NCBI GenBank assembly: GCA_025999215.1
Contig: AP024679.1
Location: 711,457-775,456 of the forward strand
Direction of reading: 5' to 3'
Length of the DNA stretch: 64,000 bases
Source of the DNA: Candidatus Dojkabacteria bacterium
GTDB lineage: Bacteria; Patescibacteriota; Dojkabacteria; J137
The notes beneath the pieces are model-generated. The model was not told where the DNA came from. It searched no databases and saw only the letters and a list, made by a program, of their open reading frames with translations. Shown here piece after piece: positions 12,003 through 64,000 of this stretch. The position numbers and the translations under genes are program-made. Positions within the stretch are counted from its first letter, which is position 1. Each line of letters opens with the position of its first letter.

Positions 12003-12028
12003 ATAAATAATATGTATAATTTTTTTAA

Positions 12029-23084: not shown

Positions 23085-24185
23085 TCAAACTGATTTTACC
23101 CATTCAACCACTAACTTTCTGAAAATTTCTAAATCTTCAATATCACACCACTCGTTTACAATATGTATGTCCGAACATTTTGATTTACACATCACTACTG
23201 GAATGCCGTTTGCACTGAAAAACCTTGAGTCAGATCCACCTAAAGCTTTATAAAATTCTGGTTTTTTAAGGTTTTTATTCTTCAAGACTTCTATCCACTT
23301 TTTTAAGAAATAATTTTGTTCATCTGTATTCATCCCATAACTAATTACAGGTTCACTAGTTATTGTTACATTTCTTTCTTTAAAAACATTCATAACTATT
23401 TTTTTTATATTTTCTAAACCAATCTCTGATGGGAATCTAATATCAAATCTACCAAGTGCTTTATCTGGAACTTTATTAAATGCATCTCCTCCTTCAATCT
23501 TGGATAAAGATATTGTTGGAATCCATACACTATCCTTTTGTTTTTCTCCCCACACTTCGTTGAATTTAGTTTCAATTTCATTATAAGCTTTCCAAAGTTC
23601 ATTTATTGCATTTACTCCTTCCCACGGTCTAGATGAATGAGCACTTTTACCTTTACTTTCAACTTCAACAAACCACACACCTTTCTCACCAGTGCAAATC
23701 TCCCAATTTTTTTTACCTGTATCTGGAACAAAAGCACAATCGCAACTAAAACCTTCTTCGTTTAGCAAATAATCAACACCATCAAATCCTCCTTGTTCTT
23801 CATCTGAAGTTATCATTAAACCAATTTCTTTATCTATTCCTTCTTTTATCAAGTCAACAAATGCATATATCATTCCCACAACCGGACCTTTCATATCGCT
23901 AGCACCTCGACCGTAAATTTTAGATCATTTTTGATAAGGCTCAAAAGCTTTTGGATAATCGCCCGGAACAACATCAATATGTCCATTCAGAAAAATTTTA
24001 GGTTTTTTAGTAAAAGTATTGGTTACAACTAATGATGGTTTGCCATTTTTCTCATATCTTCTTGTGTGTACATCGTAATCATTAAAAAAAGAATCTAAAA
24101 AATCAATTGCTTCATTTAACTTATCTGGTTTGTATACAGTTGTTTCAAAAGACAAAAGCTTTTTCAGAAAAATTTTCATTTCCAT
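23085..24185 (-). pseudogene. M20-family metallopeptidase (DapE/ArgE-like) interrupted by a single in-frame TGA at 23925-23927
   Basis: The track ORFs 23925..24185 and 23085..23894 are in the same frame (start offset 291 = 97 x 3). Read through the TGA, the sequence is GHIDVVPGDYPKAFEPYQK*SKIYGRGASDMKGPVVG, which reproduces the conserved M20 HxD...GRGAxDMKG block. Confidence 0.6.
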
Positions 24186-38407: not shown

Positions 38408-39412
38408 TTATCGAATATATCTTCGAATTGATAAATAGCTACTCAATGCTCCCAAGCAAAAACCACACATTGTCAAAATCAAAATAATAATACCATAATG
38501 TACAACACCCAAACTTGGCCAATTTAGCTTTCCTATACTTTCATAAATAAAAATTGTTAAGTTTGACCCTTGATTTACTACAAAAACGAATGTGAATATC
38601 AAACCTAAAATCAGTGAAGAAATCATTGCGCCTATAGCTCCATAAAAACCTCCTTCTAAAATATACGGTGATCTAATAAAAAATAAACTTCCACCAACTA
38701 ATTGCATTACTCCTATTTCTTCCATTTGCCTAGATAACCTAAACTCAACCGTCATAAATGTAAAGAAAAAAATTACAATCAACAACAGTGATATTATCGC
38801 AACTCCAACAATTCTAATAGCAAAGAAAACTTCTCTAAGTTGATCAAGGTTTTCATCATCGACCACTAATTTTATGGGAGGATCATTAGGCTCATCAGAA
38901 TATTGATAATAAACTTCTCCTGGTTTAGCATTTTCACCGGTTTGAATTATTTTGAGCTTTTCGAGTTCTTCCTCAATGTCTCTTTGTATCAAAAGCTTAG
39001 TCTCCTCCAGTTTATCAAGCGAGTACAATTGTATATCAAGACTAGAGGGAAGAGTTTTGTTTTCTCTGGTTCTTAAAACTGCATATGTTTCAGGCCTAAC
39101 CCTTGATGTATAATCACTATATAACTTGTAAGCTTCTTCTTCACTTGTATAGTTAATATTTTTAATATTCTCATACCCTTCCCACTTTTCTCTTAAATTA
39201 TTAACTATTGTTAAGTCCATACCTTCTTCAAAAAATACCAACAAGTTACTTTTCTGTTCAATAAACTGAATGTATAAGTTTGAAACATAAGCAAGAAGTC
39301 CAAAAATTGTAGCCACCAAAAAAGCCATAGTCATAATAGCAATTGAGCCCCAACCAGCCCAACCACTCCTTGATATTTGCTTTCTGGTATTATCTATAAT
39401 TCTCCAAAACAT
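38408..39412 (-). CDS. ftsX: Cell division ABC transporter permease FtsX
   Basis: 334 aa with an FtsX topology: TM1, a large extracytoplasmic domain, then three C-terminal TM helices. It lies directly downstream of ftsE. Confidence 0.75.
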   Translation of the reverse strand: MFWRIIDNTRKQISRSGWAGWGSIAIMTMAFLVATIFGLLAYVSNLYIQFIEQKSNLLVFFEEGMDLTIVNNLREKWEGYENIKNINYTSEEEAYKLYSDYTSRVRPETYAVLRTRENKTLPSSLDIQLYSLDKLEETKLLIQRDIEEELEKLKIIQTGENAKPGEVYYQYSDEPNDPPIKLVVDDENLDQLREVFFAIRIVGVAIISLLLIVIFFFTFMTVEFRLSRQMEEIGVMQLVGGSLFFIRSPYILEGGFYGAIGAMISSLILGLIFTFVFVVNQGSNLTIFIYESIGKLNWPSLGVVHYGIIILILTMCGFCLGALSSYLSIRRYIR

Positions 39413-49505: not shown

Positions 49506-51011
49506 TTAAACATCATTTTTTAATTTTTTGTAATACTCTTCCGCTTTTTGTAGCAGCAAATCTTTTGAATTTAATAAAGGATCATCAATTACTTCTTCAA
49601 TTAAAGCATTTAGTATTTTGCCAACAATAGGTCCTGCCGAAATTTTTAAGTGTTTCTTTATATCTTCTCCATTTATATCTAAATCCTTAATTGAAATTGC
49701 CATATCTTTTGATCGAACTTGTGCTATTCTCTCAGCTAAAGCATCAAGTTCTTTTGGGTTGAATTTAAAAAGTGGATTTGCGCTTGCATCAGCAATTCTT
49801 AGTTTCATTAAGTCTTCTACGGCATCCTCTCCACCTACATTTCTAATAAATCTCCTTATCGCTGCATCACTCCAACCGTGAGTATCTGTGTCGTCATGTT
49901 TTTCAAAAAAAGTTTTCTGATTTGGATCAAAACCTTGATCTATTTTTTCTTTACGCCAATCTGCACTGGGATAATAAAACATATGCCATCTTACAAGTTT
50001 ACTTACTCTTTCAATTTCTGATTTAGGAAATTTTAATCTTTGCATTATTTTTTTTGTGATTTCAGCCCCTTTAACATCATGCCCATAAAAATGAACTCCT
50101 TTTTCATCAACTGTTTTCGTAAAAGGTTTGCCAATATCATGGAAAAGCGCCGCCAGCTTGACTGAGTCTTCAGCAAAATCCACAGCGAGAATGGAATGTT
50201 CAAAAACATCGTAAGCATGAACTCCAGGTTGAGTTACACCAACACCTTCCACAAGCTCAGGTATAAAAATTTCTAAAATTCCGGTTTGTTGCATTAATCT
50301 AAGACCAGTAGATGGTTTGTTCGCTTTTCTTAGTAATTTAAGCAATTCATCTCTAAACCTTTCGACTGATATGTGTTTGGTCACATTTAGTGTTTTAGAT
50401 ATTGCGTTAAGTGTATTTGGTTCTATTGTAAAATTTAGTTGCGCTGCAAGCCTGCAGGCTCGAACTGCTCTTAATCCATCTTCACTAAACCTTTCTATAG
50501 GATTACCACATGCTCTTATAATTTTTCTCTTTAAATCACTAATACCATCAAATGGATCAATTAAGATTTGTTGAATAGAAATATCTGGATTATCAAATTC
50601 TTGCAAATTTAAAGCAATCGCGTTTATTGTAAAGTCGCGTCTTTTTAAATCATCATAAATATTTCTAGTAAATTCAATTTTAGATGGCCATCGTCCACCT
50701 ACATAATCTTCTTCACTCCTGTATGTTGTGATTTCTACGTTTCTAGTTTCACCTTCATCATCTTGTAATACAACAGTGATGGTACCAAATGTAGCACCAG
50801 TTGGAATTGATTTAGGAAATATCTTTTCAATTTCGTGAGGTAGAGCATTCGTTGCTACATCATAATCATCTGGAATTAAACCCAAAAGTATATCTCTCAC
50901 ACTTCCACCCACTAGATGTGCTTCAAAACCATGATTTTGCAACTCTTCAGCAATGTCTAAAATATACTTAGGAATTCTTTGTACAAATTCTGAAACTCTA
51001 AGTTCTAGCAT
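49506..51011 (-). CDS. cca: CCA-adding tRNA nucleotidyltransferase / poly(A) polymerase family with an HD domain
   Basis: 501 aa. The head domain is GGSVRD...DYDVAT, followed by an HD phosphohydrolase domain (HDIGKP). Confidence 0.8.
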   Translation of the reverse strand: MLELRVSEFVQRIPKYILDIAEELQNHGFEAHLVGGSVRDILLGLIPDDYDVATNALPHEIEKIFPKSIPTGATFGTITVVLQDDEGETRNVEITTYRSEEDYVGGRWPSKIEFTRNIYDDLKRRDFTINAIALNLQEFDNPDISIQQILIDPFDGISDLKRKIIRACGNPIERFSEDGLRAVRACRLAAQLNFTIEPNTLNAISKTLNVTKHISVERFRDELLKLLRKANKPSTGLRLMQQTGILEIFIPELVEGVGVTQPGVHAYDVFEHSILAVDFAEDSVKLAALFHDIGKPFTKTVDEKGVHFYGHDVKGAEITKKIMQRLKFPKSEIERVSKLVRWHMFYYPSADWRKEKIDQGFDPNQKTFFEKHDDTDTHGWSDAAIRRFIRNVGGEDAVEDLMKLRIADASANPLFKFNPKELDALAERIAQVRSKDMAISIKDLDINGEDIKKHLKISAGPIVGKILNALIEEVIDDPLLNSKDLLLQKAEEYYKKLKNDV

Positions 51012-51029
51012 TTGATTTATTGAAAAATT

Positions 51030-51557
51030 TTATAAAAACAAACCTTGTTCCATTTTATCCACTTCCTCAGCTGTATACAAATTTTTGGGATCGTCCAAAT
51101 ACTTTGTAAACAAGATTCCATCTAAATGATCAATTTCGTGCTGTATCAAATGAGAAAAATAATCATTAGCCTTTATTTTTTTTGTTTTTCCTGAAGGGTC
51201 TAAATACTCAACAACTACGGACTTTGGTCTGCTCACCAAACCATAGAGTCCTCCATTAGCAATACTCAAACAACCTTCCCAGTTCGTAGAAATTTTTTTA
51301 CTTTTTTTAATTATTTTTGGATTAATTAAAACTTCCCAATCGCTACCATCTCTATCAAGACGATTTACAACAGTAACGCGAAGTAGTTCTCCAATTTGAT
51401 TTGCTGCAAGCCCAGCAGAATTAGGCCCAGCATTTTTTGCTGTATCAAGTAAATCCTCTATTAAGTTTTGAACTTTATTTGAGGTAACATCCTTAACTTC
51501 TTGAGCTTTTTGTGTTAGAGTTGGAAAACCAAGTTGTACTATTTTTTTAATTGCCAT
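51030..51557 (-). CDS. def: Peptide deformylase
   Basis: 175 aa with the GLAANQIG, EGCLS and HEIDHL motifs. Confidence 0.85.
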   Translation of the reverse strand: MAIKKIVQLGFPTLTQKAQEVKDVTSNKVQNLIEDLLDTAKNAGPNSAGLAANQIGELLRVTVVNRLDRDGSDWEVLINPKIIKKSKKISTNWEGCLSIANGGLYGLVSRPKSVVVEYLDPSGKTKKIKANDYFSHLIQHEIDHLDGILFTKYLDDPKNLYTAEEVDKMEQGLFL

Positions 51558-51572
51558 AATACATTATAGCAA

Positions 51573-53015
51573 ATGAAAGATTCTTTTTTTGAAAAAAGAG
51601 TTATTAAGCTTAAGACCACTCAATATGAAGGTAAATCTGTGATTTACGTAATGTCTAGAGATCAGAGAATTCATGACAATCACGCGTTGCTTTTAGCGCA
51701 AAAATTATCAGAAGAAAAAAAGCTCCCTCTAATTGTTGCTTTTAACTTATACCCTAACGTAAAAAACAGAAATTTTAAGCATTATGAATTTATGCTTAAT
51801 GGTTTAAAAATTTTGCAACAAAACTTAAATGATTTAAATATACCTTTTGTTGTGAGTGTAGGTAAAGCGTTAGATAACTACAATTTACTAGAAAAACAAT
51901 TTGATCCGAGTGATATGGTTTTTGATTTTTCGCCATTGCGCGGACCAAAGAAAATAAAAAAGGTTTTTAGTGAGCAAAATAAAGCAAATGTTTATGTAGT
52001 TGATACTCACAATATTATTCCTGTTTGGGAAGCTTCTCACAAACAGGAATTTGCAGCTTATACCATTAGACCAAAAATTTTAAAACTCCTAGATAATTAT
52101 TTGGTTGAACCAGAAAAAATTTCTAAAAATAATTTTTTCTGGAAAGGCGAAGTTTCACCTAGGCTATACTTTTTTGACAATTCAAATATTCAAGAACATG
52201 AAACACTATGGAATAAAATCTTTCAATCGTGTAACGCACTTAAAATACCAAATTATAGTTTTAGTTTCCGACCTGGAGAACAAGATGCTACAAAAAAATT
52301 AGAATTTTTTTTGGAAAATAAATTTAGTTCATACGGAGAATCAAGAAATAACCCTAATGAAAATTCAATTTCAAACTTAAGCCCATATATTCATTTTGGA
52401 ATGATTTCTTCTCTACGCATTGCTTTAGAAACAATTAAATTTTGCGAGGAAAACAATTTAGAAAACTCTGAGTCTAAAAAAAGTTTTCTTGAGGAGTTAA
52501 TAATCAGAAAAGAATTAAGTGACAATTATTGTTTTTATAACAATAACTATGATAATTTCAATGGCTTGCCTGATTGGGGAAAAGAAACTCTAAATTTACA
52601 CAGAAAAGATAAGAGGGAATTTGTTTACGATTTAGAACAATTCGAAAAAGCCCAAACGCACGATAAAGCCTGGAATGCTTCACAAATACAAATGATGAGC
52701 GAAGGCAAAATGCACGGTTACATGAGGATGTACTGGGCAAAAAAAATTTTAGAATGGAGTGAATCACCCGAAACAGCAATTAATGTAGCTATTTATCTAA
52801 ACGATAAATACAACTTAGACGGTTATGATCCAAATGGTTATGTTGGAATTTTATGGAGTATTGGAGGTCTCCATGATAGACCATGGTTTGAACGTAAAAT
52901 TTTTGGTAAAATAAGATATATGAACTACAATGGACTTAAGAGAAAGTTTGATGTTGATAGTTATATCAGGAAGTATTGTAAAATAAATACCAACACCCCC
53001 CAAACCTTGTGTTAA
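51573..53015 (+). CDS. phr: Deoxyribodipyrimidine photolyase, class II CPD type
   Basis: 480 aa. The N-terminal VIYVMSRDQRIHDNHALLLAQ is a class II signature, and a C-terminal FAD-binding helical domain follows. Confidence 0.8.
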   Translation: MKDSFFEKRVIKLKTTQYEGKSVIYVMSRDQRIHDNHALLLAQKLSEEKKLPLIVAFNLYPNVKNRNFKHYEFMLNGLKILQQNLNDLNIPFVVSVGKALDNYNLLEKQFDPSDMVFDFSPLRGPKKIKKVFSEQNKANVYVVDTHNIIPVWEASHKQEFAAYTIRPKILKLLDNYLVEPEKISKNNFFWKGEVSPRLYFFDNSNIQEHETLWNKIFQSCNALKIPNYSFSFRPGEQDATKKLEFFLENKFSSYGESRNNPNENSISNLSPYIHFGMISSLRIALETIKFCEENNLENSESKKSFLEELIIRKELSDNYCFYNNNYDNFNGLPDWGKETLNLHRKDKREFVYDLEQFEKAQTHDKAWNASQIQMMSEGKMHGYMRMYWAKKILEWSESPETAINVAIYLNDKYNLDGYDPNGYVGILWSIGGLHDRPWFERKIFGKIRYMNYNGLKRKFDVDSYIRKYCKINTNTPQTLC

Positions 53016-53026
53016 AATACTGAGAA

Positions 53027-54589
53027 TTGAGTAACCCTGACACATTTAAAAGTTCGATTACTTCAATACCTTTATCAAAGGAAAGGAAAAGTGAAGACTT
53101 TTATAATTTTTTAAAATTTTTAAGAGAAAATAATTACGATATAGATTATATAGACTTAAATTTTTTGGCTAGATTATTTTTTTTCTTCAAACATCTAGGA
53201 ATTTCTGCTTACCATCAAATTTATGAAGAAATACAAAGAATATTAAATTTTGATTTTATAAAATTTTTAATTTTTTTGGAAAACAATAATTTTAATTTTA
53301 ATAGTAAAAACGCCTTTGAAGAAATATATAACTTTGTACAACATAATATACCAAAAAGTCAACAAATACATGAACTGTATTTGGAATTTCTAAAAACTCA
53401 ACACATAACATTTAACAATAAAAGAGAATATATATTACACGATAAAGGGTTTTTCGAAATAGTTGATTATTTTCAAAAAACTTTTTATATTGATTTTTCG
53501 AGTGAAAAGTACACTTTGGTAAAACTTTTAATATTTTTGTTTAAAGATAATACTGCAAATACGGTCGAAAATTATGCTCAACACCTCATGGAAAAGAGAA
53601 TACAGAGTCTACAACTCTTACTTCTCTCAAATTTACCAGAAGACTTACTTAATAATAATATTTTAAGAAATATATTAACATCCGAAAAATTAACAACTTA
53701 TGTCATAGATTTATTACAAAATAATTGGGATCAAATAATCGACTCCTTTCCTGAAGACAAAAAAACTTCTTTAATCATAATGTTTAATTGGATTATTGAA
53801 TTGCTTAATACTAAGCCTCAAATTACTCAAGAAATAAAATTGTTTTATGAACAAACATTAGAACCTGAAAGAATTTTAATTAATAAAATAGTTTTAAAGT
53901 ATAATTCTGAACTCAACCAAGCTATCAGTAAATTTAAAAATCTCGATACTTACGAGATTTTTTTAGATTTTCTTAATGAAACTCAAGAAATTGATGAAAG
54001 AATAAAAAGCATATTAGAATATAACGAGTGTTACGATCCCGCTGAATTGTATTCCTTGGTGATTTACGAAACTTATACATTTCAAGCTGATATCAAAGAT
54101 TTTTTATACAATTTTTTTGATACTGAAGAACAAACTGAAATAAATTCATTATTTATTAATTTGTTTTTTGAGTATATTTTTTTAAACTTAGATATTAATA
54201 TACTATCAAAACTTATACAAGGAAATATTATTGTTACGAGAAAATTTTTAAGTTTCGTTGAAAGTAAAATTATAAATGGAGTCTTTAAAGATTACTTAAG
54301 TGAAAGATTAAAAATATGCTTTATTCATATTTTCAACCAAACTCAAATAACAGGAATACAACTTAAAATTTTAGAGGTTTCTTTTGAATGTTATAAAAAA
54401 CGTAAAATTAGTAGTGAAGATTTTAAAGCTTTTATAAATTTTGTTAAGAAAAATTGCGACACCAACAATCTTGTTAGGTATGCAAATATGATGTATTTAA
54501 GTGGATATACTTCGTCAATGTATTTACATGAAAGTAATGAATTTATTGATTTCATAAACCGTAACCTCGGAGGTATATCTTTTAATTAA
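53027..54589 (+). CDS. Hypothetical protein (orphan, N/F/I/K/L-rich, soluble)
   Basis: 520-aa ORF with no recognisable motif. Its composition is biased but not purely repetitive. Confidence 0.4.
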   Translation: MSNPDTFKSSITSIPLSKERKSEDFYNFLKFLRENNYDIDYIDLNFLARLFFFFKHLGISAYHQIYEEIQRILNFDFIKFLIFLENNNFNFNSKNAFEEIYNFVQHNIPKSQQIHELYLEFLKTQHITFNNKREYILHDKGFFEIVDYFQKTFYIDFSSEKYTLVKLLIFLFKDNTANTVENYAQHLMEKRIQSLQLLLLSNLPEDLLNNNILRNILTSEKLTTYVIDLLQNNWDQIIDSFPEDKKTSLIIMFNWIIELLNTKPQITQEIKLFYEQTLEPERILINKIVLKYNSELNQAISKFKNLDTYEIFLDFLNETQEIDERIKSILEYNECYDPAELYSLVIYETYTFQADIKDFLYNFFDTEEQTEINSLFINLFFEYIFLNLDINILSKLIQGNIIVTRKFLSFVESKIINGVFKDYLSERLKICFIHIFNQTQITGIQLKILEVSFECYKKRKISSEDFKAFINFVKKNCDTNNLVRYANMMYLSGYTSSMYLHESNEFIDFINRNLGGISFN

Positions 54590-55356
54590 GTGTTTGGAGA
54601 GAGTTGATTGTTTATAAATAATTTCTTTATAGAATAAAAAACTCTTGTTTAATTGTTGTTTAAGATTAGTAAAGCTTCTGACATAAATCTTCAAAATTAA
54701 GTATTTCATCTAAAAGATAGCTAGTTCGTTTAACATCAAATGTACACAAGTTTTCGATTTTTTCAAAATCCATTGCAGTTTTCTTCTCTGTTATATGTGA
54801 TTCAACTGAAAATTTTGAAGAAGAAACCATAAGGTACACACTCTTCACATCAAAAATGACTTGATAAGTGAAAGTTATAGCTAAAGTTTTTGATTTAATC
54901 TACAAAAAAACAACAAAATATATTTATAAATTTATAATCCCTTAAAGCATAGCACAAAAAATAGTTAGAATTATGAAAGTTATATTTTTCCAATCTAGGT
55001 TGTAAATTATTTTGGATAGGATTGAACTTTAACTAACTGGATTGTATCAGGTTTTACTACAACACTAAAGTACAGAATAAAGCATTGCGTGGTACATTGC
55101 AAACTAAGATTTTACAACTTTTCGATATTTTCAACAAAATCAAAGTTATCTTTGAAAACGATGCTGGTTATACAACTTCGGGATTGACTCTAGCGGTCTA
55201 ACATGTCCGGCGTTAGTAACAGACTAAAATTAGCATAGGGTCAAATAGAAGGCAAAAGTTCTTTGTATTTTTCTACCTTTTCCTCTTTTGTCATAGCTGC
55301 ATAACGCGGTGATGGGGAAGGTAGATAAATTAATTGTACATCTGGATGATTTTCAA

Positions 55357-55762
55357 CTAAGTGTTGGAATTGTTTTTGTATTGACTTTCGATATATCTAC
55401 TAGAAAAATACACAGCCTTAATGCCAGATTTTACTAAGTTTTCTAAATTAGGATTGTGGGAAATTATTTCCAGATGGTTATCAAGGCTTGATTGCTTTGT
55501 TCTCTTACATTCGTAGATTATGTCTGTTATTCCTAACCCTAGCCTTTCGCATAACTGCATCTTTTGATCTTTAGTCTCTAATGTCAAATTGTATACTTGT
55601 CCTATTAACTTCCAGAATGGGTTTCTTCAGTTTGAATAAAACCAATTATAATCATTATTTTTAGCAATGAAATTAGATGTAAAGCTACCTAGCAGAAGGT
55701 ATTTGAAGTTCTTAGGAACAAAGTCTCCAAATTTGTGAGTTTCAATTCTAATGTTATCCATT
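55357..55762 (-). pseudogene. UDG-superfamily DNA glycosylase (hypoxanthine/mismatch DNA glycosylase-like) with one in-frame TGA
   Basis: From the ATG near 55762 the sequence is MDNIRIETHKFGDFVPKNFKYLLLGSFTSNFIAKNNDYNWFYSN*RNPFWKLIGQVYNL..., continuing as the track ORF 55357..55587 (...ERLGLGITDIIYECKRTKQSSLDNHL...). The LLLGSFPS, Y-x-x-x-NxFW and G-x-D family motifs are present, and a single TGA interrupts the N-x-FW block. Coordinates are approximate to 1 nt. Confidence 0.55.
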
Positions 55763-55926
55763 GGATTGTAACCATTTGCCTAACTCATCCCATGCATCTC
55801 CCCATACAGCAATTTCTCTTCGTCAGTCATTTCTGCAAGTGTTTTATGTTCATCTTTGACTAAGAATATTTTGTCATAACTCCAACCATTTTCGCCCCTT
55901 TCTTCTTGTATTATTGTGCCATACCC

Positions 55927-56306
55927 TCATGACTGAAATATTTCAGTTTTTTCTCCATCAGTATATGCAATTGTTCTTTGAACATATGCGGAATTATTAG
56001 GAATATTTTTAGTGAGGTCCATTAAACCTTTCTCACCAATAGTTTCTAATATGTATTTCGTATACACTCCTGGAAAATCTTTAAGATCTTCGATAAATAG
56101 ACCTGAATCCATCACTGTGAGAGCTTTTGAGTTTCTTTGAATGCTTTCTCTGCTTTATCTATTGCTACTTGAGATGGATCGTTAGATTGAATCTCATCCA
56201 ACTTGACCTCAACGCTCTTTACGTCAATCCCAAATTTCTCTAAGACAGAAGATGCTGAAGCAAGTTTGTGTTCGTTTATTGTTGTAAATAGTATTTCTTT
56301 AATCAT
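55927..56306 (-). pseudogene. Non-canonical purine NTP pyrophosphatase (RdgB/Ham1 ITPase family), frameshifted
   Basis: The track ORF 56112..56306 (MIKEILFTTINEHKL...) corresponds to the ITPase N-terminus. The ORF 55927..56115 (DSGLFIEDLKDFPGVYTKY) carries the conserved DSGL...PGVYSARY block in a different frame. The 1-nt frame change lies at about 56112-56115. Confidence 0.55.
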
Positions 56307-56819
56307 TACTTAGGAACTTTAATAATTCTATTTTTATTATATCTCGAGTGCCTTCCCAACTTAAGTCTTTATCGATATCTTCAATAGGTTCAAATTTTCG
56401 ATACTGTTGCTCTCCACCTGGGTCGTTCACAAATTCGTGTATTTCTTTTACTTTTGTAACATAACGTAATTGAGTTGTGTGATATGTTTTATTTCCATCA
56501 TCATCCAAATCCCAAGAAATCATATTGAAAAAGGTTTGATATAACTCCCATCGATCACCACAGCAGTTTCTTCATACACTTCTCTTGCAAGTGTTTGTTC
56601 TGGTGTTTCTCTTTTTTTAATTGTTCCACCTGGTAATCCCCACCAATGCTTATCTGCGCTAACAAGTAAAACCTCGTTATTGGTATTGAGCACAATACCT
56701 AAACTTTGATTTGGAACGTTTGCAAGCTTTGAAAAATCAGTATCAAAATACTCTTCAAAGAGCATATCTTGCCCATTGAAATTTATTTTTGTTGAGAGGG
56801 TAGGTTTATTCGTCATCAT
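56299..56819 (-). pseudogene. Nudix hydrolase, frameshifted just after the Nudix box
   Basis: The ORF 56520..56819 ends 10 aa after the Nudix box GLPGGTIKKRETPEQTLAREVYEETAV. The remaining C-terminal fold is encoded in the overlapping ORF 56299..56523, in another frame. The junction lies near an A5 run (56527-56531). Confidence 0.5.
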
Positions 56820-57410
56820 AATGAAATACTAAATTAACTACCTCATCTTCGAATTTAGGCTCATTGGTATCAGATATTCTATAACTGTGATCAGCCCCCT
56901 CAATTTCAATAACTCTAGCCTCAGATAATCCATTGCTATATAAATCCTTCCTAACTGCATCTGCATTTCCTAATCTATCATTTGAACCTTGAATGACTGT
57001 TAAATTACCTTTGAAACCGGATAGATCAATATCTCCCAAAACATATCCAGGTATTACAACTTCAATTTTCTTCTCATGTAAATCTTTTTGATTATTCTGC
57101 AAGTATTTAGCTAATACTATATCTCCAAGTGATTTTGCTATAAATTTAATCTCTTTAAAATTAAATTGACTGATAAAGTTAATTATCTGTGCGATAGTCT
57201 GTTGCTCTTCTGTTAAATCTTCTCCTGAACTATTTTCCTCACCTCGATCTAAATACGGAAAGTTGAAGGTGATTGTACTTATACCGCTAGCAGTAGATTT
57301 TTTATAGAGTTTCTCCATAAAGGGAGTTCAATCCCTTTAGAACCGCCATGAATAATTATATTGATAGCATTACCCTTTGTAAAAGAGAATTTAAGTTTTG
57401 GAAAAATCAT
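56806..57410 (-). pseudogene. Alpha/beta-hydrolase (KANL3/Tex30-like), N-terminus in a different frame
   Basis: The track ORF 56806..57318 (…FNFPYLDRGE…GADHSY…) lacks its N-terminus. An upstream out-of-frame segment from the ATG at about 57410 encodes MIFPKLKFSFTKGNAINIIIHGGSKGIELPL, the expected HGG oxyanion-hole start of this hydrolase family. Confidence 0.45.
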
Positions 57411-57434
57411 AATACTTTTCAATATTGCAATAAA

Positions 57435-58583
57435 TTATCTTAATGTTATCTCTCCCCCAAAGTCAACTGAAAGCCCTTGTGTAATTCTCTCAACAAAGTT
57501 TTCCTGGGAATAATCTCTATTTATTAACTGCACTCCGTTTTCTCTAATACTAGACCAGATGCTTTCCTCAGTATAAAGTAGCCTTAGCTTATATGCGAAT
57601 TCATCTGGAGTATCGGCAACCATTGCGTTAATTCCATCGGTTAATCCAACCTGCCTAGCAATAATAGAGGTGGTAATCACTGGCATACCCATTGAGATGG
57701 CTTCGGTTACTTTCCAAGGTAATCCAGCAGCATATCTGGTCGGTGCAACGAATACACGCGAACTAGAATAAAATTGTGAGATATCTTCAACTCTCCCATG
57801 AATACGCACAAAGGTACTTTCTAGTTCCCTTACCCTCTTCGATGAGCAGATACCAATCAAATCTAAATGTCCTAATTCAGATATGTCATCACTTAAATAT
57901 GGTAGTACGTTATTAATAAACCATAGTATAGAGTTGCTATTAGGTGTGTCATCACCGTGCATTGCACCCACAAATAGTAACCCTTTTCTATTATTAAATG
58001 CATAACCCTTTTCCGATATTTCTAAAGATGGATGCCCAATAATATCTATTCTTACGTCTACAATTTGACTATTAACGAGAATTTGTCTCTCATGTTCTGA
58101 AACAACCCACACTGAGTTAGCATGTTTTGCATATTTCATCTCTTCTCGAATAATCCTTATTCTTTCCTTTAAAGCAACAGGATGTTCCAACTCCATTTTT
58201 GCAATTGTTCTTAAAGAACCAATAGCCTCAGTATCAAAAATAATTGGAATATTTATATTTAATCCATTTTCTATTAATTCTCCTACTCTCCTCATATTAT
58301 GTGCTCTAGATACTATGATCTTTTTAAACGCACTAGATTCCCTTCTGAGAAAGTCACCTAATCTTTCTTTGCTTTTGTCATCTGCTCTTAGAAATCTAAC
58401 ATTGGGATATTTATTTACAAATCTTTCATAGTATTCTGGATACTCATCAGGTTTAAGAGCGTAAAAAGTTACCGTCTTACCCAATATATTGCTAATCACA
58501 TGTAGGATATTTGAAGCTCTTGGATACCCAGCACCTAAAAACGGATAGGGTATTCGGTCTTCGATTATAAGTATTTCACTCAT
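57435..58583 (-). CDS. Glycosyltransferase family 4
   Basis: 382 aa. The C-terminal segment RVFVAPTRYAAGLPWKVTEAISMGMPVITT...GLTDG fits the GT4 (GT-B) donor-binding region. Confidence 0.75.
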   Translation of the reverse strand: MSEILIIEDRIPYPFLGAGYPRASNILHVISNILGKTVTFYALKPDEYPEYYERFVNKYPNVRFLRADDKSKERLGDFLRRESSAFKKIIVSRAHNMRRVGELIENGLNINIPIIFDTEAIGSLRTIAKMELEHPVALKERIRIIREEMKYAKHANSVWVVSEHERQILVNSQIVDVRIDIIGHPSLEISEKGYAFNNRKGLLFVGAMHGDDTPNSNSILWFINNVLPYLSDDISELGHLDLIGICSSKRVRELESTFVRIHGRVEDISQFYSSSRVFVAPTRYAAGLPWKVTEAISMGMPVITTSIIARQVGLTDGINAMVADTPDEFAYKLRLLYTEESIWSSIRENGVQLINRDYSQENFVERITQGLSVDFGGEITLR

Positions 58584-59587
58584 TATTTGGGATAGGGTTT
58601 AACTAATACTCCGTCTTTCCAGAAACCAATACTTTGGTTCAATCTTCTTAAAAACCAATAGTTATAGTAAGATTCATCTAACATTAATTTATTTACGTTA
58701 ACTCCTAGCTCTATTTCTCTTGATAAAAAATCGTAAATATCTTTTTTCCACTTTTCAAAAAAAACTAGATTAGGTTTTTTATAATATTCATCCATCTTTA
58801 CTTTTTGAGAACTCTTCAACCGAACATTAAAAGCTTTATGCCTGAAATGATGAACAAAAACATTTGTAGCTATTCCCAATTTGTAACCATTTGTTGATAT
58901 GCGCCAAGATAAATCAATATCCTCAGATCCATGTGGAAATTTTGGATCAATGATACCCCCAACCTTATTGATAAGTTTATTTCTTACTATGAAGCAACAT
59001 CCCCCAATATGTGCAGGCGGACATTCAACGTATTTAACACCATTACTGTGCATAGCCAGGAAATCTTTAACGAACTCATCGAAAGAAGAACCTCTAGTTA
59101 AACCGGAGATTTCATTCTCTATCGATAACCCAAGGGGAAGACCGTTCACAACATCGTCTGTAGAGGAATTAATATATGGATGTTCGAATATTGGTAGAGG
59201 CCTTGCTGGTCCGAGCATAGCAAGAGTTTTATCCTTATTGAACTCTTCAAGCATCTTTTCCAACCATTTTTTGGAAAATAGTAAGTCATTATTAAGAATA
59301 ACCGTAAAGTTACAATTCTTAAAATATTCTCTTGCTGAATAGATTGCCCCTCCATAACCAAGATTTTGATTTTTAAGCAACACATTAATGTCTGCATTAG
59401 GATAATAATTGTGTATGTCTTTTAAATAATCTCTAGTACCGTCTGTGGAGTTATTGTCTACTATTGTAAAAGTAAATTTTTTTTCAGTTGATTCATACAA
59501 ACTTTTTATAGTTAGCTTGGTATATTCTAAAGCATTCCAAGTAACCATAAGAATATGAATTTTGGGATCTGAATCTAAATTTTTCAA
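58583..59587 (-). CDS. Glycosyltransferase family 2
   Basis: 334 aa with an N-terminal GT-A domain (ILMVTWNALEYT...VDNNSTDGT, the DxD-like NNDLL, and SEDIDLSWR). Confidence 0.75.
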   Translation of the reverse strand: MKNLDSDPKIHILMVTWNALEYTKLTIKSLYESTEKKFTFTIVDNNSTDGTRDYLKDIHNYYPNADINVLLKNQNLGYGGAIYSAREYFKNCNFTVILNNDLLFSKKWLEKMLEEFNKDKTLAMLGPARPLPIFEHPYINSSTDDVVNGLPLGLSIENEISGLTRGSSFDEFVKDFLAMHSNGVKYVECPPAHIGGCCFIVRNKLINKVGGIIDPKFPHGSEDIDLSWRISTNGYKLGIATNVFVHHFRHKAFNVRLKSSQKVKMDEYYKKPNLVFFEKWKKDIYDFLSREIELGVNVNKLMLDESYYNYWFLRRLNQSIGFWKDGVLVKPYPK

Positions 59588-60195
59588 TTAATGTATTTCT
59601 GCTTAAGAATTTGAATTATCTCTGATTGTAATGCATTTTCCAACGCCTCCAATTGTTCAATAGGATGGAAAAACATTTTTGAATCTGGATCATCTGGTTC
59701 ACTTTCATTGAATACAAGTGAGTCCGCATCAACGTTGATGATAAAAACCTTTTCTGGACCAAAATTTTCTTTGTGTTGTTCATGTACCATTTCATAATCA
59801 TATTTGGTTATATCAATACCCACTTCCTCCTTCATCTCTCGTATTAAGGCATCTACTATTTTCTCACCTTCTCTAACGTGTCCTCCTGGGAAAACATGGT
59901 AAGTAAAGTTTGGCCTAACCCGCTTGATTATTAAGGCCTTACTGCCATCTGTAATAACTCCAATTACATAAGTAGTTGTGTCCAGCTTTACCTGGTTTCT
60001 GTTAATACTATGTCCTGATTCATTTAGGAATTCCACATTCAATACCTCATACTTTTTTTTATCTTGATTAATGTATATTTTTCCATTCTCAGTAAAAGGT
60101 TTCCCCGACCTCATCCCAATTAATTCAGCGCCCACTGGGTTGTAGTCCTTTATTATTATTGTAACTCCAAATTCAGTATATTTTATTTCGTCCAT
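59584..60195 (-). CDS. Nudix hydrolase
   Basis: 203 aa with the Nudix box GGHVREGEKIVDALIREMKEEVGI. Confidence 0.75.
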   Translation of the reverse strand: MDEIKYTEFGVTIIIKDYNPVGAELIGMRSGKPFTENGKIYINQDKKKYEVLNVEFLNESGHSINRNQVKLDTTTYVIGVITDGSKALIIKRVRPNFTYHVFPGGHVREGEKIVDALIREMKEEVGIDITKYDYEMVHEQHKENFGPEKVFIINVDADSLVFNESEPDDPDSKMFFHPIEQLEALENALQSEIIQILKQKYIN

Positions 60196-60218
60196 ACAAT
60201 TTTAGATAAAAATTTAAA

Positions 60219-61229
60219 TTAAAGTATTCTAGATAATACATAATCTCTAATACTAGTTATAGGTGTATCTATACTTTTATCATTTACTATTCTACCAATA
60301 AGTAGATCATTCCTTAAAGCTAAATATGCTTTATGATATAAGTCTCTTTTATATTGAATTAATTGAGTTAAATGCCCCATAGCATTACCTTGATGTAATT
60401 GAGATACAGCATTTGATTCCAGCTGTTTTGCACTTATAAATGGAATATGTCCCATTGATATTTGGATAAATGTTTGCACATCTGTATCTAATCCATACCC
60501 ACCGGGTAGAACCTCAATTATTCCACCTAGCTTCATCTCGTGAGGTGTGTCAACAGTTCTTTTATAAAACTTCTTGCCATAACTTGTAAACCGATAATTA
60601 GGACTTCTCTCGTCTTCAATTTTATTTGAATATATTGTAGATACAGGTCTTAGCACTCCATTATTCATATCAAATTCGTTCCAATCATCAGAAACCATGA
60701 CAAATCTATCCGGAGCTTCAACTTCTACCATCGAAGATACAGTTGATTTTCCTAAAGTACCATCACCTACTAATATGAATGCTAATGAACGTTTTCTATC
60801 GTATATACAAGAAGAATGTAACCCAATTAATCCATCTTCGATTCCACAGAAGGAACGTATTCCGTATACTAATGATGAAGCAATTCCAAAAAGACCTGCA
60901 CCGGCAAATGCAAATGATCTAAGATCGTAGGTGGTATAAATTTCCCCTAGATCTTCAATGGTCATCATTCTGATTAATGGTGTCCCGTCCTTATCTAAAA
61001 ATGGTAGAGGGGATTGGGTCAAATAGTAAAGTGCGGGCTTCCCTCTTTTCAATGTCGGAAGGTAAAAGTCCTCCTCTGCTTCAAGAAAATTTGAATGTAA
61101 TATTGGATCATCAGTAATGAATCTGACTCCAACCAGACTAGACTCACTTAAGACTTCATTATTAGCTTCAATTGTATTTTGAATCGGTGCCTCACCGAAT
61201 CTGACTTCTCTTACAGGTTTGTCAATCAT
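60219..61229 (-). CDS. Hypothetical P-loop protein with an HprK/P C-domain-like GDGTLGKST motif (putative kinase)
   Basis: 336 aa. LAFILVGDGTLGKSTVSSMVE resembles the HPr kinase C-terminal P-loop (ILITGxSGxGKSE). The N-terminal region is unassigned. Confidence 0.35.
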   Translation of the reverse strand: MIDKPVREVRFGEAPIQNTIEANNEVLSESSLVGVRFITDDPILHSNFLEAEEDFYLPTLKRGKPALYYLTQSPLPFLDKDGTPLIRMMTIEDLGEIYTTYDLRSFAFAGAGLFGIASSLVYGIRSFCGIEDGLIGLHSSCIYDRKRSLAFILVGDGTLGKSTVSSMVEVEAPDRFVMVSDDWNEFDMNNGVLRPVSTIYSNKIEDERSPNYRFTSYGKKFYKRTVDTPHEMKLGGIIEVLPGGYGLDTDVQTFIQISMGHIPFISAKQLESNAVSQLHQGNAMGHLTQLIQYKRDLYHKAYLALRNDLLIGRIVNDKSIDTPITSIRDYVLSRIL

Positions 61230-61960
61230 ATATTGTGTGCATTAGAAATAAAATTATTTTTATCAATATCCTGTCTTTGTTTTAAAACAACTTTTTTAGG
61301 TAGTTCTATTTTCTCCCTATATTTAGGAAAACCTGAATAGTAATTACCTTCATAGTAACTTAGTAAAAGTGGATACTTTTCTAAATATTTGTCCCTATCA
61401 ATTTGAAACTCTTCTTCTTTTAATCTGGCATGTTTCCGAATATATTCCTTACGCAGAAAATATTCAGTTAGAAGTGCCTTATCCTCATCAGTCACAAAAT
61501 TTTCAGTATAATTTATTAGATCATCAGCCTCAGAATTTTTATAAATGAAACTATGAGGGCTTATTGTTAGTATCGTTTTAATAGCTGATGTACCCTTCCT
61601 AGCAACCTCCCTCTTTGCAGTATCGATATCAACAATGTTAATTGTCATGCAGTAGTTCATTTTTTCCTTTATATTATTCTCGCTGATATAGCTTTCAATA
61701 TTTTTTTTACATATATTCTTATCCGAACTTATAATTAAAACATCTACATCGGGTCTGATTTCTAATTTCGTAAATGTAGATTTTTGGAACTTGTTCTTAA
61801 AATAAACCCTGGTATCGACGTAAGACACATCTGGTAGCTCATCTTTACGTTCGTATAAGAATGAACCATGAAGTACTGTAGTTAATATGTTCTCCTCATT
61901 TATAGTTGAGATATCTCCTAGAAACTCTATTGGATCGGGTTTAAAATTTCTTTTTTTCAT
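61226..61960 (-). CDS. Hypothetical protein
   Basis: 244-aa ORF. Its start overlaps the stop of the upstream FAD oxidase, so it is co-transcribed with the glycan locus. It has a possible weak hGS...D-x-D nucleotidyltransferase-like pattern, which is not convincing. Confidence 0.35.
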   Translation of the reverse strand: MKKRNFKPDPIEFLGDISTINEENILTTVLHGSFLYERKDELPDVSYVDTRVYFKNKFQKSTFTKLEIRPDVDVLIISSDKNICKKNIESYISENNIKEKMNYCMTINIVDIDTAKREVARKGTSAIKTILTISPHSFIYKNSEADDLINYTENFVTDEDKALLTEYFLRKEYIRKHARLKEEEFQIDRDKYLEKYPLLLSYYEGNYYSGFPKYREKIELPKKVVLKQRQDIDKNNFISNAHNI

Positions 61961-63264
61961 TGTGTAAAAACTTTTAATAAGTATTTATTCAAAAATTTCT
62001 TTTTCGGATCGAGTGATTCACGTAATTCAAGGAAATCCGACCATTTCGGATAAAGTCCTGATAGTATTTTCCCATCAGCTAAAAACTTCTTTGCCCAATG
62101 GGGACGTCCTTGATATTTTAAAAATATTCTCTCAATTGATCTAAATGCTTCATATTCATCTGCTTTAGAGGGTACCCTGCAAGTAAGCCCCACGGTGACT
62201 ATATCTCTTTGATAAGCATAACTTAACCAAGAATTGTCTCGTTTAACTATTCTTATATCCATTGGAATATGTGCATATGCTATGTTGTTATGTGATTCAA
62301 ATTCTTTTTTCAGTTCTACAAAAAGATCATGAAAATTATCTCTAGCAACTGTCCACTCTGTTATTTCAGAAGTACCCTTACCTCTAACTTTTGTTACTGT
62401 AGTTTCGTAAAGATTCCCTGAATGCTCTTTTTTGAATGTATAGAATAATAAAAAGATTAGCTTGTTTATATAAACAGAAAATCTTGGATAGTTAAAACAA
62501 ATCTCATACAGTTTGGTAGATAAATATCTTCTATATTTAAGATGTCGAGGTCCTTTCTTTTGTTTTATACTTTGATAATCAGTTACCTTATCGCCGGTGA
62601 TTACGTAACCAAATCCGGTATGCGGTAACCACAAAACTCTAAAAAAATCATGATTTCTTGCCAACATGTCAAATTTATCAACCCATACTTTGTCCCTAAT
62701 AGGTCTTTCCTTGATGTGTAAAATGTATTCTTCTGTACATTGGAAGGTTACTTCAGAAATAATTCCAAGAACACCTAATGAAACTCTTACAGCTGCCATG
62801 TTGTCATTCAACTCATCAATGATTTGTATTTGACCATCTGCCGTAATTAGCCTTAACGCTACTACATACTGAGACAGAATATAACCCTCATCTGAAGTGC
62901 CATGTGTTGCAGTTGCAATTGCTCCTCCGATGGATATTGAGCTAATGTCAGGTAAGCAAGGAATTGTCCATTTCAACTTGGATAGTTCATCTAATAGATC
63001 TGAAAGCATAGCTCCTGACTCTATTGTGATCCTCTTATTTTTATGATCGATATTTTTTATCCTATTATATTTTTTCAAACTAATTAATGTATCAGTTCCC
63101 CCAGCTATATCAGAGGTTGAATGCCCTGCACCAACAACCCTTACTTTAGCAGAGTTAGCTATTATTCTTCTCAGCTCAGGTTCTGATTTAGGATAATAGA
63201 TTTTTTCATAAGTGTGTTTAATATTACCATTCCAGTTTTGCCAGGTTTTATTAGCGTTTTTCAT
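61957..63264 (-). CDS. FAD-linked oxidase of the sugar-1,4-lactone oxidase family (GULO/ALO-like)
   Basis: 435 aa. The N-terminal FAD_binding_4 domain is VRVVGAGHSTSDIAGGTDTLISL, and the C-terminal GRPHWAKKF (HWAK motif) is typical of ALO/GULO-type oxidases. Confidence 0.65.
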   Translation of the reverse strand: MKNANKTWQNWNGNIKHTYEKIYYPKSEPELRRIIANSAKVRVVGAGHSTSDIAGGTDTLISLKKYNRIKNIDHKNKRITIESGAMLSDLLDELSKLKWTIPCLPDISSISIGGAIATATHGTSDEGYILSQYVVALRLITADGQIQIIDELNDNMAAVRVSLGVLGIISEVTFQCTEEYILHIKERPIRDKVWVDKFDMLARNHDFFRVLWLPHTGFGYVITGDKVTDYQSIKQKKGPRHLKYRRYLSTKLYEICFNYPRFSVYINKLIFLLFYTFKKEHSGNLYETTVTKVRGKGTSEITEWTVARDNFHDLFVELKKEFESHNNIAYAHIPMDIRIVKRDNSWLSYAYQRDIVTVGLTCRVPSKADEYEAFRSIERIFLKYQGRPHWAKKFLADGKILSGLYPKWSDFLELRESLDPKKKFLNKYLLKVFTQ

Positions 63265-63836
63265 TCTATAGATTTTAAAAGTTGAATCTCTAATAATTCA
63301 CATATAATGTGAATTATTGTTATGTGAGATTCTTGGATTCTAGGAGTATTTGAGGAATCGACTATGAGACTATGTTCTACTAAATCCTTCATTAAACCAC
63401 CATTATTGCCAATCAATCCTATTGTGCGTATATTCATTTCTTTTGCTCTATTAACTGCTTCAAGTATATTTCTCGAGGTACCGCTTGTTGATATGCCAAT
63501 AAATACATCACCTGGCTTTCCTAGTGCTTCTATTTGCCTTGAAAATATATTGTTAAAGTCAACATCATTAGACCATGCGGTTATGAACGAAGAATCTACT
63601 GTCAAAGCAATGCATGCTAAACCTTGCCTGTTAATTTTAAACTTACCGACTAACTCAGCTGCAAAGTGCTGTGCATCCGCTGCACTTCCACCGTTTCCAG
63701 CTATCATAATTTTATTACCTTGTTTTAAAACATCTAAAAGAATTAATATAGTTTTTTCGATATCATTATTGAGAGATATAAGGCTTTTCTTAACTGAAAA
63801 ACTTTCTTCTATTTGTTCTCTGATTCTAGTTTTCAT
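63261..63836 (-). CDS. gmhA: Phosphoheptose (sedoheptulose-7-phosphate) isomerase, SIS domain
   Basis: 191 aa with IMIAGNGGSAADAQHFAAELVGKF and GISTSGTS, typical of GmhA/DiaA SIS proteins. Confidence 0.75.
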   Translation of the reverse strand: MKTRIREQIEESFSVKKSLISLNNDIEKTILILLDVLKQGNKIMIAGNGGSAADAQHFAAELVGKFKINRQGLACIALTVDSSFITAWSNDVDFNNIFSRQIEALGKPGDVFIGISTSGTSRNILEAVNRAKEMNIRTIGLIGNNGGLMKDLVEHSLIVDSSNTPRIQESHITIIHIICELLEIQLLKSIE

Positions 63837-63924
63837 ATAATGTGATTATATTCTAATTTAAATTATTTAATATGGATTGTAACATCTAGTATTAATATAA
63901 GCATTGTATTGCAATACAAGTTTA

Positions 63925-64000
63925 CTCATTTTCTCTAATTTTTAATATACTTACTTTAACCACTTTTCCTGATGGACTTTCAAAGTCAAAGCCTTTACCT
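63925..64000 (-). CDS. C-terminal end of an unidentified gene that continues beyond the window end
   Basis: An open frame on the minus strand (...GKGFDFESPSGKVVKVSILKIRENE*) runs off the 3' edge of the window. Confidence 0.25.

Follow-up and report, generated by a model that had tools for sequence, protein, structure and literature searches.

Probable recent loss of a four-gene operon, including deaminated-purine sanitation genes, in a hot-spring Candidatus Dojkabacteria genome

A disrupted four-gene operon on the minus strand

We analyzed a stretch of 64,000 nucleotides (the window) from the genome of a Candidatus Dojkabacteria bacterium (Patescibacteria/CPR) from Katase hot-spring sediment at 52 °C. 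ORFs span approximately 90% of the window, and apart from the spacer described below the largest gap is 342 nt, in agreement with the original prediction that this genome is otherwise tightly packed. The same prediction proposed four adjacent disrupted genes on one strand. All four were found on the minus strand and all are broken. The locus is laid out as follows.

53027..54589, plus strand: 520-aa orphan ORF, 23% GC, convergent with the operon
54590..55240: AT-rich spacer, 651 nt, between the convergent orphan ORF (plus) and the HDG pseudogene (minus)
57410-55241, minus strand: four-gene operon remnant in the order hydrolase, Nudix, ITPase, HDG
56806..57410, minus strand: Abhydrolase_11 (PF20408) alpha/beta hydrolase pseudogene, 201 aa repaired
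57327/57326, minus strand: hydrolase frameshift, 1-nt deletion (orthologue GAATCTCC, window GAACTCC)
56299..56819, minus strand: Nudix hydrolase pseudogene, 173 aa repaired
56528-56532, minus strand: Nudix frameshift in a T5 run (A5 on the plus strand), T6 in the orthologue
55754..56306, minus strand: Ham1/RdgB-type ITPase (XTP/dITP diphosphatase) pseudogene, 184 aa repaired
56122..56128, minus strand: ITPase frameshift 1, 1-nt deletion, either CC to C at a conserved Pro codon or A5 to A4
55927..55929, minus strand: ITPase nonsense TGA, Arg or Lys in homologues (AGG in L003)
55812..55815, minus strand: ITPase frameshift 2, 1-nt deletion, just ahead of the C-terminal WGDAWDxLGxWL helix
55241..55761, minus strand: family-6 UDG-superfamily hypoxanthine-DNA (deoxyinosine) glycosylase (HDG) pseudogene, 173 aa repaired
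55627..55629, minus strand: HDG nonsense TGA, GGA (Gly) in L002, G or K among homologues
55373..55377, minus strand: HDG frameshift, 1-nt deletion in an A5 run that is A6 in the orthologue

Each of the four genes overlaps or abuts the next, from which we infer a single operon; the restored stop of the ITPase gene, for example, overlaps the HDG start by 8 nt. Promoter and terminator scans gave no signal above the level of shuffled sequence. Profile matches cover the full length of the repaired translations, and in all four genes the frame is disrupted relative to an intact close orthologue, as in a pseudogene. Lesions in the hydrolase, Nudix, and HDG genes were called by alignment with their intact orthologues in a relative, L002 (Logan contig DRR684996_12185; 88-93% nucleotide identity), which left exactly one gap per gene. 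The ITPase lesions were called against L003, which comes from another metagenome and has this gene intact, plus 19 homologues. The total is seven disabling lesions, comprising five 1-nt deletions and two nonsense TGAs, with at least one in each gene. The original prediction was right about the disruption, counted too few lesions, and gave a few wrong coordinates. Since every gene carries a lesion, no full-length product would be expected from this operon.

The repaired hydrolase scored 51.0 bits against PF20408 (Pfam gathering cutoff, 27), and its intact orthologue, at positions 1967-2572 of L002, scored 56.0. The two are 89.7% identical at the nucleotide level and 87.6% at the amino acid level. 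As predicted, the N terminus is out of frame, and the deletion responsible lies at a site with no run longer than 3. The repaired Nudix protein scored 53.6 bits against PF00293 (cutoff, 21.1) and shares 88% nucleotide and 87% amino acid identity with the intact gene at L002 positions 5258-5779. Its Nudix box (GX5EX7REUXEEXGU) is present as G-TIKKR-E-TPEQTLA-RE-V-Y-EE-T-A-V, and the single deviation, A for G, is common to the intact orthologue. The frameshift had been correctly assigned to an A5 run, although the run occupies 56528-56532 and not 56527-56531. Against the MutT 8-oxo-dGTPase models (TIGR00586 and PRK10776) the Nudix protein reached 29 to 32 bits, below equivalog cutoffs of 98 to 148; thus, a "sanitizing" label for it is an assumption. 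The proposal that three of the four proteins sanitize nucleotides or DNA is clear for HDG and the ITPase only.

The repaired ITPase matched PF01725 with 119.8 bits (cutoff, 22.5) over profile positions 1-172 of 186. Against PRK14821 it scored 153.3 bits (E=5e-45; equivalog cutoff, 203) and against TIGR00042 126.5 bits (equivalog cutoff, 145). The intact homologue from L003 (P0001), which is 73% identical in amino acid sequence, falls equally below both equivalog cutoffs, with 150.9 and 122.2 bits, respectively. All residues that are invariant among 20 homologues are kept. A single 1-nt frameshift had been noted in this gene. The homologue alignment supported a frameshift and raised the number of lesions to three: frameshift 1 brings in a premature TGA at 56112-56114, and the conserved C terminus can be read only in the next frame.

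The repaired HDG matched TIGR04274 at E=7e-18 over profile positions 5-149 of 150. Its 65.2 bits fall short of the equivalog cutoff of 80, as do the 61.0 and 64.6 bits of the intact orthologues P0121 and P0122. The shortfall is therefore a property of the clade and not of decay, and the CPR clade appears from these sequences to be a divergent subgroup of predicted specificity. UDG family 6 enzymes act on hypoxanthine and are without uracil activity (PMC5387724). The window copy is 90% identical in amino acid sequence and 92.7% identical in nucleotide sequence to P0121, the intact L002 gene. It keeps all 32 invariant columns in an alignment of 26 homologues, as well as the motif regions GSF(T/P)S and LPSPSPRYA. 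The in-frame TGA had been recognized from the start, while the A5-run frameshift had been overlooked.

The spacer, the orphan ORF, and related loci

The stretch from 54590 to 55260 had been described as noncoding, which holds with the right end moved to 55240. The longest ORFs within the spacer are 60 to 61 aa, and a 60-aa ORF had no homologue by phmmer among 1.84 billion representative proteins. An RNA gene, for which the original prediction had suggested an Rfam search, did not emerge: the spacer contained no tRNA by ARAGORN and no Rfam family at gathering score, and an Rfam scan at E values up to 10 gave chance-level matches only. With folding z-scores of +1.1 and +0.7 as well, a structured RNA was ruled out. 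We also searched the spacer for gene remnants. Neither tblastx nor blastn, run against the window and every fetched locus, matched anything but the HDG tail, and tblastn with all L002 proteins gave no match. There was no similarity to L002, to locus L084, or to the remainder of the window, and the repeats found were short two-copy families only. For a phage or mobile-element origin, blastn of positions 54000-58000 against a phage collection gave no match.

The neighboring 520-aa ORF had no Pfam or NCBIfam match, and its sole homologue in 5.8 billion proteins was the allele of a sister strain, KatS3mg086, with 69% amino acid identity. The two alleles share 83% nucleotide identity, compared with approximately 100% over the 11.7 kb upstream, and dN/dS was 0.38. 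On these sequences, a strain-specific region begins at the orphan ORF, which is hypervariable among the co-occurring strains. KatS3mg086 is about 100% identical to the window over 41.3-53.0 kb and unrelated beyond approximately position 54560. Because the spacer coincides with this point, where gene order departs from that of the sister strain, it most simply represents a rearrangement or decay scar. The operon loss thus adjoins both a hypervariable orphan gene and a point of strain-level rearrangement.

In L002, 14 Nudix/HD/HAD/Ham1/HIT genes lie in a row, with the HDG orthologue last. The window ITPase and that island's 219-aa Ham1 gene are not orthologues. In the window, an intact Nudix paralogue lies 2 kb upstream of the operon, and two glycosyltransferases separate it from the hydrolase. 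Close relatives of the zone came from Logan contigs only, as opposed to GTDB species representatives, in which an exact-peptide scan gave no orthologous loci. A profile scan of GTDB genomes yielded 80 HDG loci (≤58% identity), and within 10 kb of them there was no copy of this hydrolase or of this ITPase. This implies that the cluster is lineage specific.

Distribution and age of the lesions

The remainder of the window is not free of lesions, as a Pfam census revealed. An M20 peptidase carries an in-frame TGA that aligns with Asn/Gly, an amidase is split at an A8 run, and two further broken genes lie just past the window end. The broken genes outside the operon are of unrelated function (M20 peptidase, amidase, an HTH regulator, and a GreA-C-like gene). 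Nevertheless, of nine lesions detected across the window, seven fall within 2.17 kb, out of a coding total of approximately 58 kb. Such clustering is well beyond chance (roughly 1e-7, estimated from counts and allowing for the choice of position). Overall, about 8 of 68 genes in the stretch are disrupted; for CPR (Parcubacteria) MAGs, a pseudogene fraction of 5 to 10% has been reported (PMC11188291). This genome uses TGA as an ordinary stop codon, which ends 14 of the 61 window ORFs. A code in which UGA is read as Gly (code 25) was rejected on this count and on the different residues that in-frame TGAs match.

We then considered how recent the decay is. Compared with intact orthologues, dN/dS was 0.15, 0.14, and 0.17, and the value for the intact neighboring Nudix gene was 0.21. 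Values of 0.14 to 0.17 imply that purifying selection acted almost throughout the period after the two lineages separated. The operon genes have no surplus of lineage-specific amino acid changes; at conserved sites, changes derived in the window versus the sister numbered 6 versus 5 for HDG and 9 versus 6 for the ITPase. Profile scores of repaired versus intact proteins were 65 versus 61 to 65 bits for HDG, 153 versus 151 for the ITPase, 51 versus 56 for the hydrolase, and 54 versus 59 for the Nudix protein. Thus, apart from the lesions the sequences are almost unworn, and inactivation came late relative to the split from the closest relative (dS of 0.23 to 0.46). The ratio of indels to amino acid changes looks high for ordinary neutral decay.

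Interpretation and comparison with known systems

Taken together, we believe that these are real, recent pseudogenes of a single accessory operon, in a part of the chromosome that varies among strains, and we place the probability of this reading at roughly 0.8. The four genes would be what is left of a bigger island for nucleotide house-cleaning or salvage, which a related lineage still has in full. The operon probably ceased to be needed or expressed as a unit, after which it would have gathered five 1-nt deletions and two nonsense substitutions. The original prediction read the coordinated loss as relaxed selection on nucleotide-pool hygiene. The decay itself stands; a hygiene-specific cause is only partly supported since unrelated genes are broken too, an intact Nudix paralogue lies upstream, and the low dN/dS points to purifying selection on these genes until late in their history. 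Given the operon-like overlap and abutment of the genes, one loss, of need or of expression, is enough to account for the decay of all four with no genome-wide change in hygiene. A better fit is therefore that a single accessory operon was lost where the chromosome varies between strains.

The lesions appear to be real and not sequencing errors. If the genes were instead intact in the organism, the lesions would be consensus errors confined to this locus in a long-read metagenome assembly of low coverage. The published MAGs were indeed built with metaFlye from PacBio HiFi reads at modest coverage; for the sample's two Dojkabacteria o__J137 MAGs, the reported values are 10.8x and 5.9x. Moreover, each of the five frameshifts is the loss of one nucleotide, and between two and four of them fall in A/T runs, which is also the typical HiFi error mode, and the split amidase likewise breaks at its A8 run. 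FtsX is split in the sister-strain MAG and intact in the window, which shows that these assemblies can differ by indels. The data set (DRR290133) is unamplified PacBio HiFi, filtered at >Q20. Its Logan contig DRR290133_14256, a de Bruijn assembly of read k-mers with no polishing, is 100% identical to window positions 54969-64000 and includes all seven lesions. This is a separate method applied to almost certainly the same reads, and its coverage begins at 54969, to the right of spacer positions 54590-54968. K-mers that occur a single time are dropped by Logan (PMC12424806). That a k-mer assembly with singletons removed yields 9 kb of identical sequence makes consensus errors unlikely. In addition, two of the lesions are base substitutions to TGA, and at least one deletion lies outside any run longer than 3; TGA-making substitutions and deletions outside runs are rare HiFi error types. 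Seven errors would have to fall in 2.2 kb, with none in the adjacent 6.4 kb with its seven genes. The poor local assembly that was originally offered as an alternative is thus disfavored by the intact orthologues and the identical de Bruijn assembly, and we consider it improbable.

Two other explanations accept the lesions as real. The genes could have been broken in another lineage and then recombined into this flexible region. The genome is a mosaic, with tracts either 100% or approximately 85 to 95% identical to a co-occurring strain, the zone lies directly past a synteny breakpoint, and its gene order is unlike that of L002. However, no collection searched held another copy with the same lesions, and the low dN/dS and unworn sequences mean that a donor must have lost the genes recently too. 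For that reason this route, which we judge to be quite unlikely, is a variant of the main explanation. If it were true, the decay would be uninformative about selection in the window genome. Far less probable still is continued expression by recoding, in which TGA would be read through or reassigned and, at the A/T runs, ribosomes would shift frame or transcription would slip. Poly(A) slippage rescues genes in AT-rich endosymbionts, and the HDG shift site (C AAA AAC) is near a slippery heptamer. The HDG TGA aligns with a conserved Gly, UGA=Gly occurs in some CPR lineages, and one ITPase homologue (P0017) looks like a product of a mistranslated UGA=Gly genome. On the other side, HDG is itself among the 14 ORFs that end in TGA, and the ITPase TGA aligns with Arg/Lys and not with Gly. 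Seven independent rescues would be needed, five of them at sites with runs of at most 5 or with none, and the orthologues merely carry one extra base.

Returning to the dead operon, what we see is probably the very recent loss, across the whole operon, of genes for repair and sanitation of deaminated purines in a bacterium with a reduced genome living at 52 °C. The locus also serves as a calibration case: clustered frameshifts in a CPR genome built from HiFi data can be genuine. It illustrates a check that requires no reads and combines intact orthologues, dN/dS, and an exactly matching k-mer assembly. More speculatively, an episymbiotic strain of this 52 °C spring may be dismantling a lineage-specific island, with 14 genes in the relative, five here, and four of those freshly killed; loss of the ITPase and HDG, its two defenses against hypoxanthine, might then raise the mutation rate and contribute to the other fresh lesions nearby. 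We give this scenario little chance, but if true it would be a natural experiment in abandoning deaminated-purine sanitation at high temperature. No new mechanism is implied, as these are ordinary pseudogenes and fractions of this size are already known in CPR genomes.

Among known systems, the HDG gene resembles UDG family 6 (TIGR04274; prototype from Methanosarcina barkeri) in its length of approximately 170 aa. The nearest solved chain is PDB 2L3F, and JGI labels homologues of the window gene "hypoxanthine-DNA glycosylase." The window copy differs in being dead by a TGA and a frameshift. Similarly, the ITPase has the typical Ham1/RdgB length of 184 aa and differs by its three disabling lesions. 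Compared with the nucleotide house-cleaning island of L002, the window retains five of the families in a shorter cluster of different order, and four of the five survivors are broken. As in the genome-reduction pseudogenes of host-dependent bacteria, including CPR/Patescibacteria, accessory genes carry frameshifts and nonsense mutations with a deletion bias. The window differs from these in having four adjacent genes with seven lesions in 2.2 kb and almost no erosion: here, the decay is unusually fresh and operon-wide, not scattered.

Four broken genes and their intact relatives

Genes were called by translating the minus strand in three frames, scanning the repaired translations (lesions corrected) against Pfam and NCBIfam, and aligning them to intact relatives. 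These confirmed the original prediction that consecutive house-cleaning genes are disrupted. Four minus-strand genes, which overlap or abut (overlaps of 14, 8, and 8 nt), are broken. Each is hit, as predicted, but by seven lesions in total rather than four, and all five frameshifts are single-base deletions.

57410 to 56806, minus strand: Abhydrolase_11 hydrolase; one 1-nt deletion between 57327 and 57326
56819 to 56299, minus strand: Nudix hydrolase; T6 to T5 at 56528-56532
56306 to 55754, minus strand: Ham1/ITPase; 1-nt deletion in 56122-56128, nonsense TGA at 55927-55929, and second 1-nt deletion near 55812-55815
55761 to 55241, minus strand: family-6-like hypoxanthine-DNA glycosylase (HDG) of the UDG superfamily; nonsense TGA at 55627-55629 and A6 to A5 at 55373-55377

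All of these families (Abhydrolase_11, Nudix, Ham1 ITPase, and family-6 HDG) are known already. The HDG codon at 55627-55629 is TGA in the window versus GGA in the orthologue, and the second ITPase deletion directly precedes the conserved WGDAWDxLGxWL C terminus.

We rejected recoding because seven separate events would be required to rescue the genes. TGA terminates 14 of the 61 window ORFs, and the in-frame TGAs align with differing residues: Gly in HDG, Arg/Lys in the ITPase, and Asn/Gly for a third TGA outside the decay zone. Separately, an ITPase homologue from a 68.7-kb ENA contig (P0017) has Trp at the family's conserved Gly sites (WWFPWV, SRWYGEI, and WWDSW); this pattern suggests that a UGA=Gly (code 25) genome was translated with a UGA=Trp table.

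Intact orthologues of the hydrolase, Nudix, and HDG genes are carried by a related lineage (L002, Logan contig DRR684996_12185) at 89.7%, 88.2%, and 92.7% nucleotide identity, with exactly one gap per alignment. An ITPase relative from another metagenome (L003) is likewise intact (187 aa, 73% amino acid identity). In L002 (1967-10522), the orthologues lie inside a run of 14 co-oriented genes of nucleotide house-cleaning or salvage type: Abhydrolase_11, five Nudix, two HD, HAD, Ham1, an APH-like kinase, a Nudix-HIT fusion, HDG, and two unknowns. Such density is unusual for a CPR genome. Compared to this island, the window version is shorter and its order is changed, and neither the decay-zone hydrolase nor the ITPase was found near 80 other HDG loci in GTDB genomes. 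Thus, the cluster is lineage-specific and evolutionarily fluid.

Decay versus sequencing artefact

The window is bacterial (~31% GC, ~90% coding) and carries the kind of housekeeping genes usual in small genomes (PNPase, NusA, MurJ, PBP2, MraZ/MraW, aminoacyl-tRNA synthetases, and EF-P). Two paralogues of the class-II Asp/Asn/Lys-type tRNA synthetases are close neighbors (10701-12002 and 12489-14306, minus strand), the latter with an unusual C-terminal fusion to a YbaK-like aminoacyl-tRNA editing domain (PF04073). In a 215-aa ORF (15858-16505, minus strand), residues 33-111 match positions 121-190 of the DSBA profile (its C-terminal part) and residues 118-187 match positions 14-84 of Thioredoxin_4 (its N-terminal part); this odd domain order suggests that two DsbA-like genes were fused or rearranged.

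Exact-protein look-ups link the window to a metagenome of Katase hot-spring sediment (DRR290133), whose Logan contigs match window positions 54969-64000 and 50845-53237 with 100% identity. DRR290133 is the PacBio HiFi metagenome of sample KatS3 (52 °C sediment, unamplified HMW DNA, reads >Q20), assembled with metaFlye. In Table S3 of the KatS3 study, two MAGs are assigned to Dojkabacteria (order J137): KatS3mg085 (circular, 862,240 bp, 31.4% GC, 10.8x coverage), to which the window presumably belongs, and KatS3mg086 (6 contigs, 5.9x coverage).

If the lesions were artefacts, the four genes would be intact. A DRR290133 Logan contig is identical to the window at every base through all seven lesions; because the read set is shared, this is an independent method and not independent data, but it rules out consensus polishing as the source of the broken sequence. 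Logan discards k-mers seen once, and seven identical random errors common to two reads are implausible; two of the sites are substitutions, and at least one of the deletions is not in a homopolymer. The chief ground for retaining an artefact is that deletions predominate with scant amino acid change, a pattern that would also fit a putative mismatch-repair-deficient genome. With intact relatives and a second assembly reproducing every lesion, we believe that the zone reflects decay, as opposed to poor assembly, and we regard an artefact as very unlikely.

Other genes are also broken. An M20/M25/M40 peptidase (24185 to 23085, minus strand) has one in-frame TGA at 23925-23927 (EPYQK*SKIYGRGASDMKG), its halves otherwise sharing one frame; an intact second M20 peptidase (24213-25649) adjoins it. 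What looks like a +1 insertion in an A8 run (26401-26408) divides an amidase (PF01425; 25646-27065, plus strand) into ORFs of 263 aa (profile 1-220) and 238 aa (profile 230-444). This lesion is the one most compatible with HiFi homopolymer error or transcriptional slippage, and the Logan assembly has no record of the exact fragment. In the 1.29 kb past window position 64000 (Logan contig DRR290133_14256, 1-1370; genes on the window minus strand), an HTH_3 regulator is interrupted by an in-frame stop and a 1-nt deletion, another 1-nt deletion frameshifts a GreA/GreB C-terminal-domain gene, and a HAD-like ORF reaches only 101 aa. Domain matches in the remaining scanned ORFs are all full-length, and the seven genes directly upstream of the decay zone (57435-63836: two glycosyltransferases, Nudix, two unknowns, an FAD/ALO oxidase, and a SIS protein) are intact. 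The broken fraction, ~8 of ~68 genes, falls within the published range for pseudogenes in CPR MAGs (5-10%; PMC11188291). Lesion clustering is strong, with 7/9 in-window lesions inside 2.17 kb. FtsX is split in KatS3mg086 (224- and 115-aa ORFs, 11274-12279 of locus L086 from GCA_026004355.1) and intact in the window (334 aa, 38408-39412), so assembly or strain indel differences go both ways.

The spacer and the strain-specific region

The adjoining stretch, originally given as 54590-55260, is indeed noncoding, but its extent is 54590-55240. It lies between two convergent genes at a synteny break. The proposed Rfam search matched no family. We found no tRNA and no homologue of any ORF, folding energy showed no excess, the repeats were not meaningful, and nothing in the stretch resembled the relatives. 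The Logan contig ends within it at 54969, leaving 54590-54968 and the join to the neighboring orphan ORF without second-assembly support. The simplest reading would be a scar left by rearrangement or decay.

KatS3mg086 (BPIZ01000001) represents a sister strain that relates to the window as a mosaic. It is ~100% identical to window 41.3-53.0 kb except for an 18-mismatch patch (50501-51000) within the CCA-adding enzyme gene, which looks like a short recombination tract; farther upstream, identical tracts alternate with tracts of ~90-95% identity. The orphan ORF (53027-54589, plus strand; 520 aa, 23% GC) matched no family, and its sole homologue among 5.8 billion proteins is the KatS3mg086 allele. 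Unlike the ~100% identical 11.7 kb upstream, the alleles share 83% nucleotide and 69% amino acid identity (dS 0.46, dN/dS 0.38). The ORF is a hypervariable gene located where synteny between the strains breaks. Past ~54560, the two sequences are unrelated; thus, the decay zone starts exactly where the recombining, strain-specific region starts.

Age and meaning of the decay

Against the intact orthologues, dN/dS was 0.153 (hydrolase), 0.138 (Nudix), and 0.171 (HDG), versus 0.209 for the intact neighbor Nudix (59584-60195) and its own orthologue, at dS of 0.23-0.48. When differences were polarized with outgroups, changes at conserved sites were not in excess on the window side (HDG, 6 versus 5; ITPase, 9 versus 6), and repaired proteins scored as their intact orthologues or just 5-6 bits lower. 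These results imply that purifying selection acted for nearly all the time since the split and that inactivation was recent.

The original prediction tied the losses to relaxed selection on nucleotide-pool hygiene. The genes have decayed, but the claim is weakened because unrelated genes nearby are also broken, an intact Nudix paralogue survives, the Nudix and hydrolase proteins have no assigned substrate (MutT models gave 29-32 bits against cut-offs of 98-148), and back-up enzymes may exist elsewhere in the genome. Taken together, we think it probable (about 0.8) that an operon of four accessory genes sits in a flexible genome region, that its selection or expression was recently lost as one unit, and that small deletions and nonsense mutations are now eroding it. 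Pseudogenization during genome reduction is a known process, and the decay zone is a new instance, distinguished solely by being very fresh, operon-wide, and beside a hypervariable orphan gene.
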